A stretch of DNA of 64,000 bases, from assembly GCA_951406725.2 (NCBI GenBank), contig OX597816.1, positions 160,766,001-160,830,000 on the forward strand, in the 5' to 3' direction. Shown here in pieces: positions 1,161 to 50,956 of this stretch. The position numbers were made by a program, and so were the translations under genes. The notes below the pieces were generated by a model. That model was not told where the DNA came from. It ran no database searches and saw only the letters and a program-made list of their open reading frames with translations. Positions within the stretch are counted from its first letter, which is position 1. Each line of letters begins with the position of its first letter. The stretch comes from Octopus vulgaris (Eukaryota).

Positions 1161-1539
1161 AACCTTATTTCATATACATCATTTACATTATTTACATTAT
1201 TTACAGTTTACGGATATCTGTCCTCATCTTGTTTATTGTTAACATATCCGTTAAATGTAAATAATGTAAATAATGTACATAATTCCTCATCTCTTAAATA
1301 TAGAACTGTCTTATTTCATATGCTCTGAGTAATATAAAGCTCTCCTTTCATAAGTCTCAAGTTATTTTGGTGGTTTATAAAAAATTGTGAATGTGTATCA
1401 TTTATGATGAAACACGAACGCCAGGGAAATATATGCTGTGTGTCACATGTGATGTAAAACACAGCACACAGACAAAGGGTTAAAATGAAACCAAATATAT
1501 AATACATTTTAATAAAATATTTTCTGCATTTCCTGTAGG

Positions 1540-2640: not shown

Positions 2641-2799
2641 TACTTACATCTTTCTATGTTGTAGATTGGCGAAAACTTCACACTCGCGCGTGTCGTTCCT
2701 TCTTAAGAGTATAGGGTATGTCTGAGGTAGATTTAACTGCTAGCTCTATCGGGATGAGGCTCCCAGCATCAAGAACTGTGTAGCTAACGATAAAATATA

Positions 2800-3375
2800 T
2801 AACCTTTCTACTATAGGCACAAAATTTAGAGGAGGGGATAATGATTACATCGACCCCCATTGTGTAACTGGTACTTAATTTATCGACCCCGAAAGGATGA
2901 AAACAAAGTCGACTTCAGCGGAATTTGAACTCAGAAAGTAGCGACGGGCGAAATACTGCTAAGCATTTCCCCAGCGTGCTAACGATTATGCCACGATAAA
3001 ATGTATAACTATTACATATTCTTTTCTACTCTAGACACAAGGCCTGAAATTTTGGGGGAGGAGCCAGTTAATTAGATCGACCCCAGTACACAACTGGTAC
3101 TTAATTTATTGACCCCGCCCCCGAAAGGATGAAAGGTAAAGTCGACCTCGGCGGAATTTGAACTCAGAACGTAGCAGACGAAATACCTATTTCTTTACTA
3201 CCCACAAGGAGCTAAACACAGAGAAGACAAACAAGGACGAACAAACGGATTAAGTCGATTATATCGACCCCAGTGCGTAACTGGTACTTATTTAATCGAC
3301 CCTGAAAAGATGAAAGGCAAATTCAACCTCGGCGGCATTTGAACTCAGAACGCAAGGCATTTCGCGCGGCGTAGC
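2800..3375 (-). mobile_element. SINE family B tandem cluster
   Basis: Three units of gagttcaaattccgccgaggtcgactttgcctttcatcctttcggggtcgataaattaagtaccagtt (B box plus a central domain resembling Nin/Deu-type SINE domains). Confidence 0.9.
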
Positions 3376-3424
3376 ACAAGAACACAGCTTTGAATTTACG
3401 ACCCAACAAGGCAGTGTTTATATA

Positions 3425-3670
3425 AGTGATTCTCAACCATTTTTCACCTATGGCCCTCTTTAATTCCCATTTTACTCGGGTGGATCCTCATAGCCATTCC
3501 ATGTTTAAAAGTTCCAATTGTATTTTTAGAATTAAATCTTATTAGGAATTGTATTAAAATTTGCTAAAATATTTTGTGTATTGTAGATGTATAACCAGTT
3601 TATTGCACATAGTTTTTAACAGCAAAATCATAATGTGGATACCCAAGTGTCATAGGAGCCCAGTTGAAAA
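3425..3670. mobile_element. hAT-like MITE (copies at 7877-8178 and 52845-53000)
   Basis: Terminus agtgattctcaacc resembles CAGTGGTTCTCAACC TIRs; internal AT-rich body is shared among three copies. Confidence 0.6.
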
Positions 3671-3998
3671 GAGAAGCATTGGTTATGTGGTTACTAGAAA
3701 GAGCAGTTGAATCTCTTCTTAACTCTTATAAAGGAAAAGATAAATTGGTCAATTTAATCCTGGATATAAGATTGGATGGTAATAGTTGACCTAGATTAAA
3801 CAGCCTTTTACAGTTCATACGAGTCTGTGCACCGTCGATCGATTTGCGAGAAGTAGCAGCCAAATCTCCATAAAGTGATATTTTACTGTCTTAAAGAAAC
3901 GAAGGCTGTATTGGACACTATAGCCCTAGATATACTTTAATAATGGGATGATCATGATTGGAATGTTTTCTATCATATGTATGCAAAATATGACCAAC

Positions 3999-4128
3999 CT
4001 GAAATAAACGGAAGCGTAGTGTTGTCGTGTTCATAGTTGTCCGATCCATAAGTGGCACAAGGGGTGTGGAACAGCTCCAAGCGGAGATTGAAACCAGGTT
4101 TCTGTTCACTTTCAGAAGGAGCTCAAAT
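3999..4128 (-). CDS. Candidate exon (FELLLKVNRNLVSISAWSCSTPLVPLMDRTTMNTTTLRFRLFQ)
   Basis: Non-repetitive, AG/GT bounded, open in one frame, phase 2 to 0. No homology recognised. Confidence 0.25.
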
Positions 4129-4183
4129 CTATAAGCAATTCTGCAGTATATTCACATGTCAATATAAATATACAAAAATGCAA

Positions 4184-4815
4184 GGCGGCAAACTGGCAGA
4201 AACGTTAGCACACTGGGCAAAATGCCTAGCGATATTTTGTATCTTTGTGTTCTTAGTTCGAATTCCGTCGAGGTCGACTTTGCCTTTCATCCTTTTGGGG
4301 TTTATAAATTAAGTATTAGCTGCGTATTGGGCTCAATCGACTGGCTGCCTCCCGCAAAATTTCGGGCCTTGTGCCTAGAGTAGAAAAGAATATAAATATA
4401 CAAATATGCGTCGAGCTGGCACAATCGTGAGCATGGACAAAATGCTTGACGGCGTTTCTTTCAGCTCTCTACACGCTTAGTTCAAATCGCGCCGAGGTCA
4501 GCTTTGCGTTTCATCCCTTCGGAATTGGTAAAATACCGTACGAGTGAGTACTTAGATCGATGTACAGTAATCCCTCGATTATCGCGGATGTTACGTTCCA
4601 AAAACTCCCACAGAAATAATTGAAATCTAAAAAAAAAGTAAATACCTACCGGCCGCAGAAACATGTAATACACTGAGTATTCTGCGATATAAATTTACAT
4701 ATATTAGCTTGAAAAATCCGCGATGTACTGAGTGCGCGATAGGTGAACTGCGATATGGCGAAGGATTACTGTAGCTGACTTGTCCCCTGTCCCTTTCAAA
4801 ATTGCTGGCCTTGAA
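4184..4815 (+). mobile_element. Two SINE family B copies
   Basis: Copies at 4184-4390 and ~4410-4815; the second is interrupted by a MITE. Confidence 0.8.
4565..4771. mobile_element. pogo/Tigger-type MITE with TA target duplication
   Basis: TIRs cagtaatccctcg / cgaaggattactg, TA on both sides, and the host SINE resumes across it. Confidence 0.85.
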
Positions 4816-4944
4816 TTCTGCAACGGACTCCACTCCCACTACCACCACCACCACTTGAAAGGAAATGTGATCCCCTTTCATTTATTCATCATAGAAATCT
4901 TGTAACTGGCATTATGAATCCTAGGGCTCAAGAAAAAAATTTAA

Positions 4945-5320
4945 AGCATGGCTGTGTGGTAAGTAGTTTGCTTCCCAACCACATGGTTCCGGGTTCGGTC
5001 CCACTCCATGGCACCTAGGGCAGGTATCTTCTACGATAGCTTCGAGCCGACCAAAACCTTGTGAGTGGGTTTGGTAGACGGAAACTGAAAGAAGCCCGTC
5101 GTGTGTGTGTGTGTGTGTGTTTTCCCACCGCCGCTTGACAACCGTTATTTGCGTGTTTACGTCCGCGTGACCTAGCTGTTCGGCAAAAAAATGACCGATA
5201 GAATAAATACCAGGCTTAAGAAAAAGATAAACACTGGGGTCAATTCATTCGACTAAAATTCTTCAAAACGGTGCCCCAGCATGGCCGGATCTGACGACTG
5301 AAACAAATGAAAGACAAAAG
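4945..5320 (+). mobile_element. SINE family A, near full length
   Basis: A box tggctgtgtgg, B box ggttcggtccc, (TG)n, tail ggtgccccagcatggcc..gactgaaac. Confidence 0.9.
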
Positions 5321-6204
5321 ATACAAATATAGAATTGACTGGAAAATGCTCAACAGATACCGTTATGTTTGTAAAAATTCCTTTGGAAATTAGTTAGATT
5401 CTTGAAATTAAGAAGGAAACTATTTGCCAATTCCTTTCACCCCATAAAATAATTTCTCACAATGCTCCTTTGTAATAGAATATGTTAAAATAAATGAAGG
5501 TTTAGTTACAAATACTTCAGAAATACCTTTGCTAGTGATGAAACGAAGGGAAGAGAGAGATAGGCAATAGGGATTATTATTCTTTTTCTTCTTTTTTCTA
5601 GAAAATTCACTTTTACAACATCGTCTATCGAAAGGTTAAACTTGATATATTTTACACTTTGTTTAAAATATTTCAAATTTGTGGAAATCGCACCGACATT
5701 GTGTGAAACAAGCTTTCGTTTGGCAGATTGTAAAAACGACACACTGTAAAAATAATTTACGATCTGTCATTCCAGATGTATTGCAGTCTAAATTACAAGA
5801 CTTTTATAAGAGAAGTTTGTTTCTCTGATATTGGTGTGAGTCTCCACAACACGTAAAATGTTGTTGTATTGTAAATTAGACTGCACGAAGCTTGGAAATG
5901 ACAGCAGTAATTACTGGCTCGAAATGGTGTTAAGTGCTCTGTTCACATGGCTTTTAAAATAGCTATTTTAAGTTGATACACTTAACTGTAGTATCTGTTG
6001 AGCACTTGCACCTCTCCCTCCCTTGTACTACTTTTCGTCAGAAACAGCCACGAAAAAGGTTTCTCAAGAAGGGTCTCCACAGATAATACATATCTCGAAC
6101 CAGTGAATAACTCCAGTTGGCTGCTCTGTTAGCTAGTTTATGATCTTAGTAGACTTTATTTTCTTCTTCGTTAACGGTACTTAACGAGTCTGAAATTTTG
6201 ACTT

Positions 6205-6727
6205 GGATATTACTTACATTATTTACATTTGACGGATATTGTTGTTTGTTGTTAACAAACAACAATATCCGTCAAATGTAAAGGTGTCTTGGGGAAATTT
6301 CGATGTTGTTGTTATAATTATTATTCAGGTCACCGCTTGGAATCGAACTCGGAATCTTGGAGTTAGTAGCTCTTAACCGCTACGCCATATGCCCGTAGGC
6401 AATTATGGAGTGAATTTTAGGGCTTATAAATCTAATATTTTCCTATTCTTCTTTCATACCGGTTCCCATATGCTACTCATATCTACACTCGGTCTGCTTT
6501 GACGGTTGTTGTGTCCAAGCATATGTACCGCTTCTTTTAGTTTTCCAGTTGTGTTCTCTTAGAAATGAGAACCCAGGTTCGAAATTTCCACAAGACATCT
6601 GATGAAGGCTGGAGAGTATATCAGCCGAAACGTTGTGTTAACAACAAACAAGATGAGGACAAATATCCGTCAAATGTAAATAACGTGAATAATGTACATA
6701 ATTCCTCATCTCTCAAATATAGAATTG
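6205..6727. mobile_element. Penelope-like element 3' end with inverted pLTR copy
   Basis: Minus 6455-6560 encodes LKEAVHMLGHNN..SRPSVDMSSIWEP (GIY-YIG C-terminus-like), followed by a tRNA-like segment (6325-6394), (AAT)n and tail. An inverted plus-strand tail lies at 6560-6727. Related pieces at 1170-1310. Confidence 0.75.
6594..6640 (+). ncRNA. Type I minimal hammerhead ribozyme motif
   Basis: CTGATGA 6599-6605, extra A, stem II ggctg/cagcc, GAAAC 6627-6631, palindromic stem III aacgtt, stem I gacat/gtgtt. Confidence 0.8.
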
Positions 6728-9193
6728 TTCCAACTTGGATGTTTACAATTGTCAGTCACAACCTTGTTTTCGTCTTTATCTTCGTAAGCAAAATTGTCAA
6801 AAAGAAAACTATTAAAGTCAATCAGATGAATAATTCTCCAAAACCCTCCACCAATATTCGAAGAGTTTGATCTACCCTTGGTATTTCTATACACCTAAAA
6901 CTAGCGTCGAATATTGCGTGAGCTTCTGCATAAACGCTTAACCTGCTGAAAATAGCAACCAAATCTCTCTTATACCCAGTCACCTTAAACAAAGAAAGAA
7001 TACATTATATAATGTAATCCGTGACTTCTAAACTGTGGGAATGGTTACGACTGTAATGATGGATCAGGATTGATTTGAGCCAAACGAGAACGACGATTCT
7101 TTTCCGAGAAACAAATCTCTCATTTCATATTAGCGACTCATTTTTGTTGCCTCTTCTAAACTCTAAATTTTACTTTGTTTCCTTGAGATATTTCTGGCTT
7201 ATATAATCCATCCTTTTGCTCACCACTTGGATATTTTCAGTTATTCCGCCTAAAAGTCTCTTTTCCCTATATCTCTAAATTCAACCACTGTCTAAATCAC
7301 TTTTCCAAACTTCTCAAGCCATCACTACTGTCTGACTTACTTCGTCTCATAATCTCGTCTCTCTCTGAAACCACTAATCTCAATGACTTCAATACATACA
7401 TCTCGTTTTAGCAGTTGCCATTTATTTCACACAGACACTATTGATATAAAGATTCTGAGTTTGCCAGCAAGGTCCAATTAGTCTCTTTGCTCAGTCTTCA
7501 AACATCTTGACATTTGTCTCACCTCCACTGCCTGTATTTACCTATCAAAGTTTCTCTCATTAAGATCACTACAATTTTCGAAACTATCGAAGTTTATCTC
7601 ATTAAGATCACTACAAAATCGAAACTACTCACTTACATCATTCTGCTGCTCAACAAGTTCTGGCCGAAAAACCCACGAATATTTCAAGTCAGCTCACTTG
7701 TTAGACATCTGCTTATTTGGAATCAAATGTACTTAACGCCTGACCCATCCGAGACAAGCAAGTGATAGAAACTCTCCTTCGTAAAACCGAACTACACTCC
7801 GCCCAACTTCCAACTGTTACACACGCAGCTACACTGCATCACTACAGACAAACAATATAACTTTCAGTATCTAGGGTAATGGTTCTAACCTAGGGCCCAT
7901 TTGGTTCTTGAGGGTCCATATAAGATTTTATTGCTAAAATTTATCTGCAATAAATTGGTTATACTTCTATGTGACACAAAATATTTCAACAATTTTTTTA
8001 TACAACGGTGGTGCATCAGCAAACGACGGTGCACCAGCATGGCCGCAGCTCTGAGCTGAAACTGAAAAAAAAAATTCCAAATAATATTTAATAATAAAAT
8101 ATATGATTTTTAAAAAATATCGAATGGCTAAGAGAGTCCACCTGAGTAAAATAAGAATGAAAAGGGTTGAGAGACATGATCTTGAATGACCGAGAAACAC
8201 TGATCAAGGGGAAGTCACCTCCAGTCATCAACTGGGAGATGTTCTTCGTACACCATTTCAACTTCTGCAACAGAAATTATTAAGAAAGCAAAGCATTCTG
8301 TCGTGCACCACATCGCTTGTAAGTTCTTAGTCAAAAACACAACCAAGCCCTTCTAGTTTTTCTCCAAGAGGATTCTTTACTAACTTTACCAAATACTCGC
8401 CCCTCTTCAAAAGACACATCACTCATCAATCAAAATGTCGCTGCAGGAAGCACTCCTGCTTATGAAGCTGCAACATTTGCTGTTAGCTTTGATTCGAACT
8501 TCACGCGGTACAAAGACAACAGGATACCTCCCACATTTCCTTGTCGTACGTCCATGGACGAACTCTTTCTACAACCTAACTTGGTGACAGGTTCAGGCAG
8601 TAACCTTTTTTAACAATCAAAAAGTTCACACACGAGCTATCTTCTGCCCTCAATACACACACACACACATACACACACTCTCTCTCTCTCACTCTCCCTT
8701 TCTCTCTCACTGTGTATAAAGTTGGCTACGTAGTGAATTTTGATTAAAGTTTACACCAGTTGCTTTCTAAAACTAATATGTAGCACTATGGTCGAGAACT
8801 TAATAACAGTCTCTATTTACGAATTGCATCAAGTTTTAGGCAAAGATTCATTACGGCGCCGACATCATATAGAGAGGCAGGGAGAGTGGGGAGGGGAAGA
8901 ACTTAGTAATGTGCAAATAGCCGAGTCGACATGATATCATACGACTAGCTACAAGATCGGCTGGATGGTATTCTGTCACAAGCATTACCTTGTGTCTTTG
9001 GTTCGGTAAACACTGAAATAAGTGAGTACACATGAGTGGAAATAGGTGTCACGAACAAAGAACAATTTCTCTACTGCAAAAAGCGGTAGCACTGGAAACA
9101 TACCGAATGTTTTGTGAGTTTGCGACGCTAAGTTCAATTCCTGCTTAAGTCGTCGCCTAGATGATGACATCTCCACCACAAGCAGCTTTTATT

Positions 9194-18286: not shown

Positions 18287-18889
18287 AAGCAAAATACCGC
18301 CATATTTCAAACCATAAATACATATATTGATTTCCGTTTTTCTTTTATCTCACCAACATTTCCCTTTCACACTATGCGTGTGACCCAAGAGTGCTCTATT
18401 TTCCTGAACATATTACATTATTATACCTTTACAGCACGTTTAGCTTAAGCTTGTTTCTTATGAACGTTAACACTGAACACTGCCACTATTCTTATCACTC
18501 TAGCTTATTGTCACGTGCTGTTTTGACCATATTGAATAATCGTATCACTTAGATCAATAGAGGTTTGCACTTCTGTTAATGGAAGTACGTAGAAAATATG
18601 AGATTTATTTACATTATTCATGATAGTAGTATTGCTTTTACATTTTAAAAACTCTAAACGTTTTTTTTTTATCTTTGCCGAACTCTCTGCTATACGCTTT
18701 GCACAAAATAATTTATGGGGTATTAACGATGAGCCAAAAGTGACAAAGTACAAAGAATGTAGTTGGTACAATAGCTGAAACCAACAGATTGTGCCAATAG
18801 ATCGCAATATGGTGTCAGACTTCGTGACTTTTGGTCCAACCTGCACACATACATACATACATACATACATAAATGCAGTTCTCTATTTA

Positions 18890-19069
18890 ATTAATGTACA
18901 TTATTTGCATTATGTACAATTGACGGATATTTTTCCTCGTGTTGTTTTTGTTAACACAACGTATCGGCTGATATACCCTCTAGCTTCCATCAGGTGTCTT
19001 AGGGAAATTTCGAACCTGGGCTCTCATTCCTTAGGTATTTTTCGATATTATTATTATTAGAGTAAAAGA

Positions 19070-19140
<71 letters not shown>

Positions 19141-19207
19141 TGTCACTGCCTGGAATCAAACTCGGAATCTTGGGGATGTAGCCCCCGCTCTCAACCACTA
19201 CGCCATA
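18890..19207 (-). mobile_element. tRNA-headed Penelope-tail element with decayed hammerhead
   Basis: A box tggcgtagtgg, B box gagtttgattcc, (AAT)n, ctgatggaagctag..cagccgatac, and a tail matching 6560-6727. Confidence 0.8.
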
Positions 19208-19555
19208 AGCGACATTGGGGCGACTGTCCACAGACGACGCTATGGTGACCAGAGCTCGCTCTGGGCGACATTGGGGCGACTGTCCACAGCTACCGGCCCA
19301 CAGTCGACGCTTTGGCGACCCCCACTCCAAGTGATCAACTGGTACTTATTTTATCGACACCGAAAGGAAGAAAGGCAAAGTAGACCTCGGTGGAATTTGA
19401 ACTCAGAACATAAAGACATGAAATGCTGGTATATATATATGTTTATATATATATGTATGTATGTATGTGTGTTTATATATATATGTTTATATATATATAT
19501 ATATATATAAACTTAGATATGTTTCGACCAATGATTGGTCCAGTCCATGTCTAAC

Positions 19556-20008: not shown

Positions 20009-24604
<4,596 letters not shown>

Positions 24605-34959: not shown

Positions 34960-35790
34960 GTATGTTCGTGTATTTGTATGAGTGCATGTATAAGTGAGCG
35001 TCTGTGTGTATATGTGAGGGTATGTGTATATATGTGAGGGTATGTGTGTATATGTAAGGATATGTGTGTATGTGAGAGTATATGTGTGTATATGTGGGGT
35101 ATAGTGGAGGCGCAATGGCCCAGTGGTTAGGGCAGCGGACTCGCGGTCGTAGGATCGCGGTTTCGATTCCCAGACCGGGCGTTGTGAGTGTTTATTGAGT
35201 GAAAACACCTAAAGCACCACGAGGCTCCGGCAGGGGGTGGTGGTGATCCCTGCTGTACTCTTTCACCACAACTTTCTCTCACTCTTACTTCCTGTTTCTG
35301 TTGTCATGTATTTCAAAGGACCGGCCTTGTCACTCTCTGTGTCACGCTGAATATCCCCAAGAACTACGTTAAGGGTACACGTGTCTGTGGAGTGCTCAGC
35401 CACTTACACGTTAATTTCACGAGCAGGCTGTTCCGTTGATCGGATCAACCGGAACCCTCGTCATCGTAACCGACGGAGTGCTTCCATATGTGGGGTATGT
35501 GTGTATATGTAAGGATATGTGTGTATGTGAGAGTGTATGTGTGTATATGTGGGGTATGTGTGTATATGTAAGGATATGTGTGTATGTGAGAGTGTACATG
35601 TGTATATGTGGGTGTATGTGTGTATATGTTAGGCTATGTGTATATGTGAAGGTATGTGTATATATGTGAGGATATGTGTGTATATGTAAGGATATGTGTG
35701 TATTTGTGAGGGCATGGGTGTAGATGTGAGGGTATGTGTATATATGTGAGGGCATGTGTGTATATGTGAAAGTATATGTGTAGAAGAGTG
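34960..35790. repeat. ~20-bp minisatellite (tatgtgtgtatatgtgaggg)
   Basis: Degenerate tandem units, interrupted by a SINE. Confidence 0.85.
35103..35485 (+). mobile_element. tRNA(Arg)-like SINE family C, full length
   Basis: A box tggcccagtgg, B box ggtttcgattccc, possible 13-bp TSD atatgtggggtat; second copy at 51995-52345. Confidence 0.9.
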
Positions 35791-43161: not shown

Positions 43162-44376
43162 ATAACGGGAAGCTTTATGAAAATAAACAAAAGACGAAGG
43201 CAGGTGGAGTACAAACAAACAATTGTATTAGTATGGCGCTCAGGAATAGAAATAAAACAAGTCTTTTACGTTTCGAGCCTACGTTCTTCAACAGAAAGAT
43301 ACACAGAAAAGAAACACGGAGAGAAACGAGGAGACAAAAAAAAATGCGTGCAAAAGCTAGCGATTCAACATGGCGATCTGATTCTGGCCAGAAGGCAGAG
43401 ATCAAAAGTGAGACGCAAGAGCGAAAATAGGGGAGATAACAGGGTCAATTGACTTCGCCCCAACATAAGGGTGCGTGTGTGTATGAGAGAGTATGTGGTG
43501 CGTATGAAAGGTCTGGACGTGTGTATGTATGTATGATGTGATGTGTAATGTCGTATGGTGTAGTGTAGAGAGGGGAGATGAGGGGAGAGGGGAGGAGGAG
43601 GGGACAGGGGGAGATGAGGGGAAGAGGGGAGAAGGAAAGAGGAGGGAGGAGGGAGAAGAGGAAAGGTGAGAGTGAGGAGGGGGAGAGGGGGAGAAGGAAA
43701 GAAGGAGGGGGTAAGGGTGAGATGAGATGAGAGGGGAGGGGAGGGGGAGAAGGAAAGAGGAGGGAGGAGGAGGGGGAAGGGGAGAAGGAAGTAGAGGAGA
43801 AGAGGAGGGAGATGGGAAAGCAGGGGAGAGTAGGGGGAAGGATAGGGGGGAGAGAGAAGGGGAGTGAGGGAGCAGAGAGAAAGAGAGAAGGGGAAGAGGG
43901 AAGAAGAAAGAGGAAAGAAGAGGAGGGAAGAGGAGAGAAAGAGAGTAGGGGTGAAAAGATGAAGGACCGAAGAGAAGCAGGAGTCGGGGGGGGCAGGTTA
44001 GATGAGGAGGAGGGGAGAGTTGAGACCAAATGGCGTAAAAGAGCGAAGAGAGAAGATTAATCCCTGTTCACGGCGCAAACGGGAATCCGGTTGGCCTCTG
44101 TGCGAGGACAAACCGAACACAGACAGGTGTTGCAAGGAGTGACCGGTAGAGCGGAAATGGCGTGAGACCGGTGTGTCCTTGGCAAGGCGGATGTCACGGA
44201 GGTGTTCCGCGAACCGGTAAGCCAAGCGGCGTCCCGTTTGTCCGATGTACAGGGAATGGCAGAGAGAGCAAGAGATGCAATAGATGATATTGCTGGAGGT
44301 GCAGGTGAAGGAGTTGATGTTGCGATAGGGTCGATGATGGATGCCAGTGAGGAGGGTGGTGTTGGAGAGGTAAGGG

Positions 44377-44381
<5 letters not shown>
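43162..44381 (-). mobile_element. Penelope-like element 3' end with GIY-YIG endonuclease (43998-44381)
   Basis: CPYL..FTCTSSNIIYCISCSLCHSLYIGQTGRRLAYRFAEH..VSRHF..RRE..I..L..PFGLN, then a ~430-bp polypyrimidine tract and a hammerhead tail; (TA)n on both sides. Confidence 0.93.
43260..43298 (-). ncRNA. Hammerhead variant (CTGTTGA core)
   Basis: cttt CTGTTGA a gaac gtag gctc GAAAC GTA aaag; stem II is perfect (gagc/gctc) in the 39460 and 51630 copies. Confidence 0.6.
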
Positions 44382-50498: not shown

Positions 50499-50956
50499 GA
50501 AAGAATGGAGTTGAACGACGAATTAACAAAATTCCATTCCTAATTTCGAAGGAATAAGGGGTGCATTATGCCGCCTTCTCATCAGGAAAAGTAAGGAACT
50601 TATCGCTATGGGCTCCGTGTGGGCAGGCATCTAAAAAATTTTGTGCATCTTGATGCTGACATAAGTTCCTTACTTTTCCTGATGAGAAGGCGGCATAATG
50701 CACCCCTTATTCCTTCGAAATTAGGAATATGCAGCCTTCGAAACATATGTCGAAAATAAAATAAAGGAATTTTGTTAATTCAACTCCATTCTTTCATTTA
50801 TTTTTATTCAAAAAAACACACAAATTTCCACACGATAGCACGTGATCTCTGCCCTAGGCATGTAGCTTCAACCGTGTTTTTCTGACGTGAATTTGCTACC
50901 CAGGTATCGGTTAACCGAATTATCCATAATAAGATAATTCCTTCAACTACTCAATT

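Follow-up and report, generated by a model that had tools for sequence, protein, structure and literature searches.

A tRNA-like head carrying predicted Pol III promoter boxes is part of the pseudo-LTR in a hammerhead-bearing Penelope-like family of Octopus vulgaris

The locus considered here lies in a stretch of 64,000 nucleotides (64 kb) of the Octopus vulgaris genome, which was analysed as a whole and is called the window below, and it raises the question of why a Penelope-like element (PLE) carries a tRNA-like cassette (the head) between the end of its ORF and its hammerhead-bearing tail. The head may have arrived once, as a SINE, in a single copy, or it may belong to the family, and in the latter case it may drive transcription or simply be carried along. 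SINEs are described as LINE parasites. To our knowledge, there is only one PLE whose transcription has been dissected; its promoter is internal, TATA-less and LINE-like, and contains an intron (PMC2377424).

At the focal locus a high-copy Penelope-like retroelement has left an inverted copy that is now dead (Table 1). It is a single insertion, 6209-6732, whose two arms meet head to head at the joint 6557/6558. Both arms carry an identical internal deletion and thus one of them was likely copied from the other; in the minus-arm tail the stretch between two TCGAAA words is deleted. A tail present on one side only has been described for PLE insertions (PMC8557442), and the focal minus arm, falling some 40 nt short of the plus arm, bears the same signature: it stops at the equivalent of the first 3' end of the family (6683), and the plus arm at the second (6724/6728). 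The focal copy therefore has the inverted 5'-truncated arm and the one-sided tail of 30-40 bp known from EN+ PLEs, and copy 3 repeats the one-sided pattern. The miRNA-family matches that Rfam returned at 6220-6284 are far under the curated thresholds and reflect only the perfect hairpin formed there.

Table 1. Features of the focal insertion and of the two other copies in the window
Feature	Positions	Strand	Remark
8-bp target-site duplication, left copy	6201-6208		direct repeat comparison
8-bp target-site duplication, right copy	6733-6740		direct repeat comparison
Minus-arm 3' end	6209-6253	-	ends ~40 nt before plus-arm end
Perfect 29-bp fold-back in place of minus-arm hammerhead core	6222-6282		
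Damaged tail start, minus arm	6283-6304	-	stops two bases into hammerhead core
(AAT)n tract between cassette and tail	6305-6324	-	
tRNA-like head	6325-6394	-	A box 6387-6377, B box core 6348-6340, tRNA +1 = 6394
Hairpin across 5' boundary of head	6385-6408	-	loop 6394-6397
5'-truncated C-terminus of PLE GIY-YIG endonuclease	6424-6557	-	interrupted by TGA and frame change
Inverted second arm: pseudo-LTR tail, codes first 55 ORF residues	6558-6732	+	ATG 6565
Minimal type I hammerhead	6594-6639	+	descriptor match
Copy 2	18873-19210	-	starts at cassette 5' end, (AAT)23, full tail, collinear
Copy 3	1176-1309		tail-only head-to-head pair in 12-bp target duplication (1164-1175 / 1310-1321)

The minus arm, with its one TGA read as X, yields a 44-residue peptide (P0001). 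The in-frame TGA (6456-6454) is absent from about 99% of the reads, and the frame of the remnant changes near 6545. A full HMMER scan with P0001 gave 30 matches with E up to 0.001, from which several unrelated repeat proteins among the top matches (P0002, P0003, P0008, P0016 and P0019) were dropped. The best true match is an Octopus vulgaris predicted protein with 77% identity, and a protein with both reverse transcriptase (RT) and endonuclease is matched at its extreme C-terminus, with 66% identity over 29 aa. Fourteen sequences from the P0001 matches were aligned (A2), and a profile of them retrieved 21 longer proteins, most of which contain an RT domain. P0001 thus aligns with the C-termini of RT-bearing proteins, which agrees with the earlier note's assignment of a GIY-YIG-like C-terminus on the minus strand. 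Pfam gave no family for P0001 itself, and the RT is missing from the truncated focal copy; the single Atlas lead for the peptide (0.78) is to a cluster with 17% GIY-YIG, and a word-indexed search with the 44-aa peptide as query returned no match. Exact DNA patterns found no match in metagenome, genome or viral collections, and viral scans with the proteins found no PLE. The other end of the element is recognizable too, the focal tail ORF matching the N-terminus of a full-length relative, P0057, with 44% identity over 45 aa. A Zn-finger-like linker between RT and endonuclease was not seen by eye in P0064 or P0057. One annotated Octopus vulgaris 'gene' (P0006, CAI9723794.1) starts with an antisense tail translation fused to the endonuclease end; another inverted PLE insertion of this kind was likely taken for a gene there. 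The window also holds, at 43998-44380 on the minus strand beside an (AT)n tract, a GIY-YIG C-terminal remnant of a second PLE family (a weak Pfam match) with a long pyrimidine-rich 3' region; an A/B box pair was sought in this remnant and none was found.

The pseudo-LTR of the family is the 3' end of one unit together with the ORF start of the next: the open frame of the plus arm corresponds to the first 55 codons of the next unit's ORF. Within it lies the hammerhead: stem I measures 5 bp, the core is followed by a bulged A that precedes stem II (6 bp), and stem III is a palindrome that lacks a loop; the cut is predicted after 6634. This is the architecture of PLE hammerheads, which are predicted to act as dimers and cleave weakly in vitro (PMC4209133). 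The descriptor that found it also matched 6 of 60 shuffled windows, and Rfam gave no match to the hammerhead at 6594-6639. At 6598 the focal plus strand reads T, whereas C stands there in about 98% of the RNA reads (1595/1630, 1631/1653), because of which the closing pair of the focal hammerhead is a wobble. The hammerhead that the earlier note had called intact is thus minimal and nearly intact. At 50537-50727, beside a (TA)n tract, the window contains two identical hammerhead-like motifs on opposite strands that form a head-to-head inverted pair and belong to another family.

The head carries an exact A box and an exact B box core 28 nt apart, as scored with the consensus motifs of the two boxes, and an AAT-like tract follows, so that the order of A box, B box and (AAT)n proposed for the minus strand stands. 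This is the layout of a type 2 Pol III promoter, with the boxes at tRNA-like spacing. The pair is the only exact A plus core-B pair on both strands of the window, and the chance of such a pair is about 5e-5 per 123-nt spacer by Markov resampling, for a region chosen after the motif had been seen; a stricter B pattern selected an unrelated SINE head at 35116 instead. That head, at 35105-35260 on the plus strand, is tRNA-derived and has exact A and B boxes. The head is not recognized as a tRNA: ARAGORN and Rfam called neither a tRNA nor a hammerhead in the window or in either head, and the same was true of 13 of 13 related loci with ARAGORN and 12 of 13 with Rfam. The tRNA-like fold of the focal head has z-scores of 0.4 to 1.1. 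Relative to the reads, the focal head lacks 6 nt near 6368-6370, in the anticodon-stem region.

One raw RNA run (X23) and three DNA contig sets were mapped at 80% likeness on 6284-6790, which leaves the fold-back outside the mapped stretch; the right flank, 6743-6790, was covered in X2 and X4. The family is abundant, with tens of thousands of contigs per DNA run (32,477, 32,447 and 31,503, besides 10,249 reads). In the window the cassette is otherwise borne only by copy 2, and that copy, with the same head but a different upstream flank, suggests that the head is a SINE which inserted once into the focal copy. However, many contigs of the three DNA runs pass unbroken from the ORF end into the head (e.g., 6330-6511, 6317-6493, 6340-6482 and 6331-6477) and join the AAT tract to the tail, and no target duplication surrounds the head, the best match being 6 nt shared with the AAT tract. 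The idea of a one-off SINE is practically untenable, and the earlier note, which had proposed the cassette as a family trait and named a duplication of its own as the mark of a single SINE insertion, was right on the former point. In all four runs (AAT)n precedes the tail: opposite-strand joints from 6298/6312 to 6558/6564 place the AAT tract and the hammerhead tail next to each other in this order, and 567 reads and 126, 137 and 130 contigs with loose ends in front of 6558 show AAT repeats there. One contig of 2695 nt that ends in the head carries a further 2523 nt upstream, roughly the length of a unit (its letters were not displayed). Among the loose ends listed, the top six per run, the ORF end had no exit other than the head, which bounds the number of head-less copies.

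Copy 2 and the reads and contigs of the four runs thus give a collinear order of cassette, (AAT)n, start codon and hammerhead, and the order of ORF end, head, (AAT)n, ATG with hammerhead, and tail is fixed in the family; the tRNA-like head is a fixed part of its pseudo-LTR. The claim that a promoter stands upstream of the hammerhead tail accordingly fits the layout of the family, as copy 2 and the reads and contigs have it, but not the focal copy, where the fold-back replaces the minus-arm core. Copy 2 has no ORF remnant, its B box and hammerhead are mutated, and a target duplication was sought around it and not found. It starts at the head, as a tRNA-derived SINE would, and the joint cluster described below would fit such units; the focal insertion itself is no SINE. 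A GC-rich stretch of 120 nt (19209-19330), with an internal 25-nt duplication and weakly like 20844-20892, separates copy 2 from an abundant SINE. The 3' ends of the family, in four runs, fall at 6683 and 6724/6728, about 40 nt apart (1840, 695 and 1209 loose-ended reads in X23), and fit the PLE tail as it is defined by two sites at which RT starts internally (PMC11167929). From about 720 reads at the ORF end, depth climbs through about 1970 to about 5300 in the tail, a gradient that 5' truncation would produce and that has no clear step at the head.

What the earlier note missed is that the head sits in the promoter position of the tandem, between a stop codon and a start codon: the family stop lies near 6424, the next ATG about 150 nt on, and the head fills about half of the gap. 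We regard this as a promoter position, and not merely a 3' trailer, because D. virilis Penelope has its internal promoter in that region. The head may therefore serve the element itself and not only its tail.

The starts of other copies point to the same place. Same-strand joints of body to tail represent other inverted insertions, and 9 of the 12 distinct ones listed start at 6393-6400, a clustering with a scan-corrected P of about 2e-6 in an 18-nt window under a uniform null; the sample is tool-selected and comprises 15 of 386 joints, with 12 of 300 between-letter rows. The cluster surrounds the tRNA +1 given in Table 1, which is obtained by taking the first T of the A box as tRNA position 8; copy 2 also starts at this predicted head start. 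Because of the focal 6-nt deletion the mapping misses joints between about 6371 and 6390, and ends are drawn to 6396 by a mismatch at 6397; the true ones extend to 6398-6406. Contigs cannot distinguish short copies from full-length ones. The hairpin across this boundary has a predicted energy of -12.5 kcal/mol (z -3.7, equalled by 1 of 200 shuffles). The RNA run, which is in effect unstranded, has neither a sharp start nor a cleavage end. It is partly dominated by one variant, several sites standing near 40% in RNA and under 3% in DNA, and RNA depth was for that reason rejected as a measure of copy number or of Pol III output. Among the variant sites of X23, A>G changes number 31 and T>C 23, against 9-12 and 7-9 in DNA; A-to-I editing of inverted copies fits this, as do a different individual or one dominant locus. 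No run of four T occurs from the head to the tail end in either focal arm, although over 170-250 nt of an A-rich strand this absence carries little weight.

With somewhat more belief than doubt, we favour the reading that in young copies the head works as a type 2 Pol III promoter and that its transcripts are copied back by the protein of the element. TFIIIC would bind the boxes and transcription would begin near 6394-6400; the RNA, meeting no T4 terminator, would continue across the hammerhead up to the sites at which RT starts internally (the equivalents of 6683 and 6724/6728). Acting in trans, the protein could then nick AT-rich DNA and copy the RNA, which would produce SINE-like solo pseudo-LTRs of 330-350 bp such as copy 2. 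Judged from sequence, use of the head by Pol III is likely, the promoter being a predicted and the cleavage a putative one. The focal copy itself is unable to follow this route on one strand.

The joints can also be read without any promoter. A tRNA or SINE head may have entered the spacer of an ancestral master and have been amplified along with it as a passive passenger, with the hairpin stalling or redirecting RT. The hairpin loop coincides with the joint cluster, the head with its (AAT)n resembles a simple SINE, no RNA start was seen in the RNA run, and the boxes are absent from most of the PLE relatives examined. Nevertheless, decay of the cloverleaf has left both boxes exact, a state known from tRNA-derived elements that retain their promoter (PMC10886601), and with about half of a spacer of ~150 nt taken up by the head there is little space for another promoter; moreover, as described below, the layout recurs in a distant element whose flank forms no such hairpin. 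We consider this explanation unlikely but serious enough to be kept in mind.

It is also conceivable that the start is real but belongs to an internal Pol II promoter, as in D. virilis Penelope, the A and B boxes being a relic or a TFIIIC-binding boundary, and that the short copies come from reverse transcription at a 5'-proximal internal site of the full-length mRNA. The TATA-less internal promoter of D. virilis Penelope does lie in the pseudo-LTR (PMC2377424), RT starts internally on RNA that runs from the pseudo-LTR into the ORF (PMC11167929), and the protein of 850 aa requires a translatable RNA. On the other hand, the position of the 5' ends is that expected of transcripts from a type 2 Pol III promoter, and no intron-like joint is among the RNA joints listed. 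A Pol II start of this kind appears decidedly improbable to us.

The preferred reading of the head as a Pol III promoter gains from a comparison with other PLEs. Thirteen PLE loci were found when contigs of metagenomes and genomes were scanned. One of them, a 2-kb contig in a Buchnera MAG (L013), is a PLE fragment and probably host DNA contamination. Another, L003 (contig JGI1357J11328_10009043), holds at 2760-5550 an intact head-to-tail tandem, a perfect repeat of a 2791-bp unit with an intact ORF; it is about 36% identical to relatives of the focal family (36% to P0064) and at most about 42% identical to its nearest named relatives. In both repeats its spacer carries, between the stop and the hammerhead, A and B boxes that are both exact and stand 45 nt apart, with an AAT tract behind them (P about 1.5e-4 per spacer), and the flank has no comparable hairpin (z 0.95). 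The heads of L003 and of the focal family can be aligned only at the boxes and the AAT tract. L003 is the one of four families with a complete spacer that has the boxes; in L001, L006/L010 and L011 the spacer is T-rich and free of boxes, the partial spacers of L002, L005 and L009 contained no boxes, and five loci have no ORF end. In a quick tree that included no named reference, L003, L002 and the relatives of the focal family fall in an unresolved group (89 SH-aLRT). The tRNA-like layout, as far as the letters go, recurs in a distant intact element and is not confined to the focal family.

L003 also bears on the possibility that Pol III transcribes the whole protein-coding unit from the head and not only a short RNA. 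Over its 2791 bp the unit contains just two T4 runs and not a single T5, and neither run lies more than about 200 nt from the ATG. The ORF has 2 T4 runs against 7.3 expected (P 0.007) under a codon null weighted by third positions, while six other PLE ORFs have 9-28 runs, more than their nulls, and no depletion. However, codon-shuffle and Markov nulls give P of 0.19 and 0.18, the depletion concerns one element only, and the uncapped RNA of Pol III is poorly translated. The T-run depletion is a hint and no more, and Pol III transcription of the whole unit seems very doubtful. The T4 runs just after the ORF start of L003 could end a short Pol III transcript. An even broader proposal would be that in at least two distant lineages coding PLEs replaced their Pol II promoter by a captured tRNA promoter, that Pol III makes both the short ribozyme RNA and a full-length RNA depleted of T runs, and that pseudo-LTRs are the birthplace of PLE-dependent SINEs and of SMalpha-like repeats; we hold this to be improbable.

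Known systems share parts of this arrangement. The canonical EN+ PLEs of the Penelope/Poseidon type, D. virilis Penelope and anole PAc, have the RT followed by a C-terminal GIY-YIG (here seen in close relatives) and a minimal hammerhead that overlaps the start of the ORF; their copies are 5'-truncated, with inverted arms, two 3' ends and a tail at one end (PMC4209133, PMC11167929, PMC8557442); the focal family differs from them in the tRNA-like A/B-box head and AAT tract of its spacer. The schistosome SMalpha/Sj-alpha repeats are short mobile units in which a type I hammerhead comes after a Pol III promoter (PMC6765202, PMC8490949), but SMalpha is described as non-coding and tandem, whereas here the pair stands in the pseudo-LTR of a coding PLE and overlaps the ORF start. 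The non-LTR retrozymes of animals are short hammerhead units related to the pseudo-LTRs of PLEs (PMC7229834, 10.64898/2026.07.22.740005) and have been proposed to be PLE derivatives (PMC7229834). A tRNA head or Pol III promoter did not occur in the searched text of the retrozyme papers, and the focal copies are dispersed or inverted and not tandem, no tandem array of the unit being present in the 64-kb window. In the TRIMp3 elements Cassandra, Helenus and Ajax a Pol III promoter derived from a small RNA lies in the terminal repeat, with the boxes kept and the fold decayed (PMC10886601); those are, however, non-autonomous LTR elements with PBS and PPT, while the focal family is a PLE with the head on coding copies. 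Copy 2 resembles tRNA-derived SINEs (SINE2) in having a head, a simple repeat and a tail from an autonomous partner, but its partner is a PLE and not a LINE, the head is also found in the coding element, and the 3' ends are internal RT start sites in place of an A- or repeat-tail. The passages available from the curated O. vulgaris annotation list 30 Penelope families with recent activity, besides many SINE families left unclassified, and do not describe the structure reported here (PMC13282606). In the parts of the literature searched, which did not extend to Repbase or Dfam, where a family consensus may be held, there is no report of a PLE with a tRNA-derived promoter.

A tRNA-derived head in the pseudo-LTR of a coding PLE would represent a route from an autonomous PLE to short, ribozyme-bearing elements driven by Pol III. 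If this is true, it would link PLEs, SMalpha-like repeats and retrozymes, and some of the repeats that are annotated as octopus SINEs may be the ends of PLEs.
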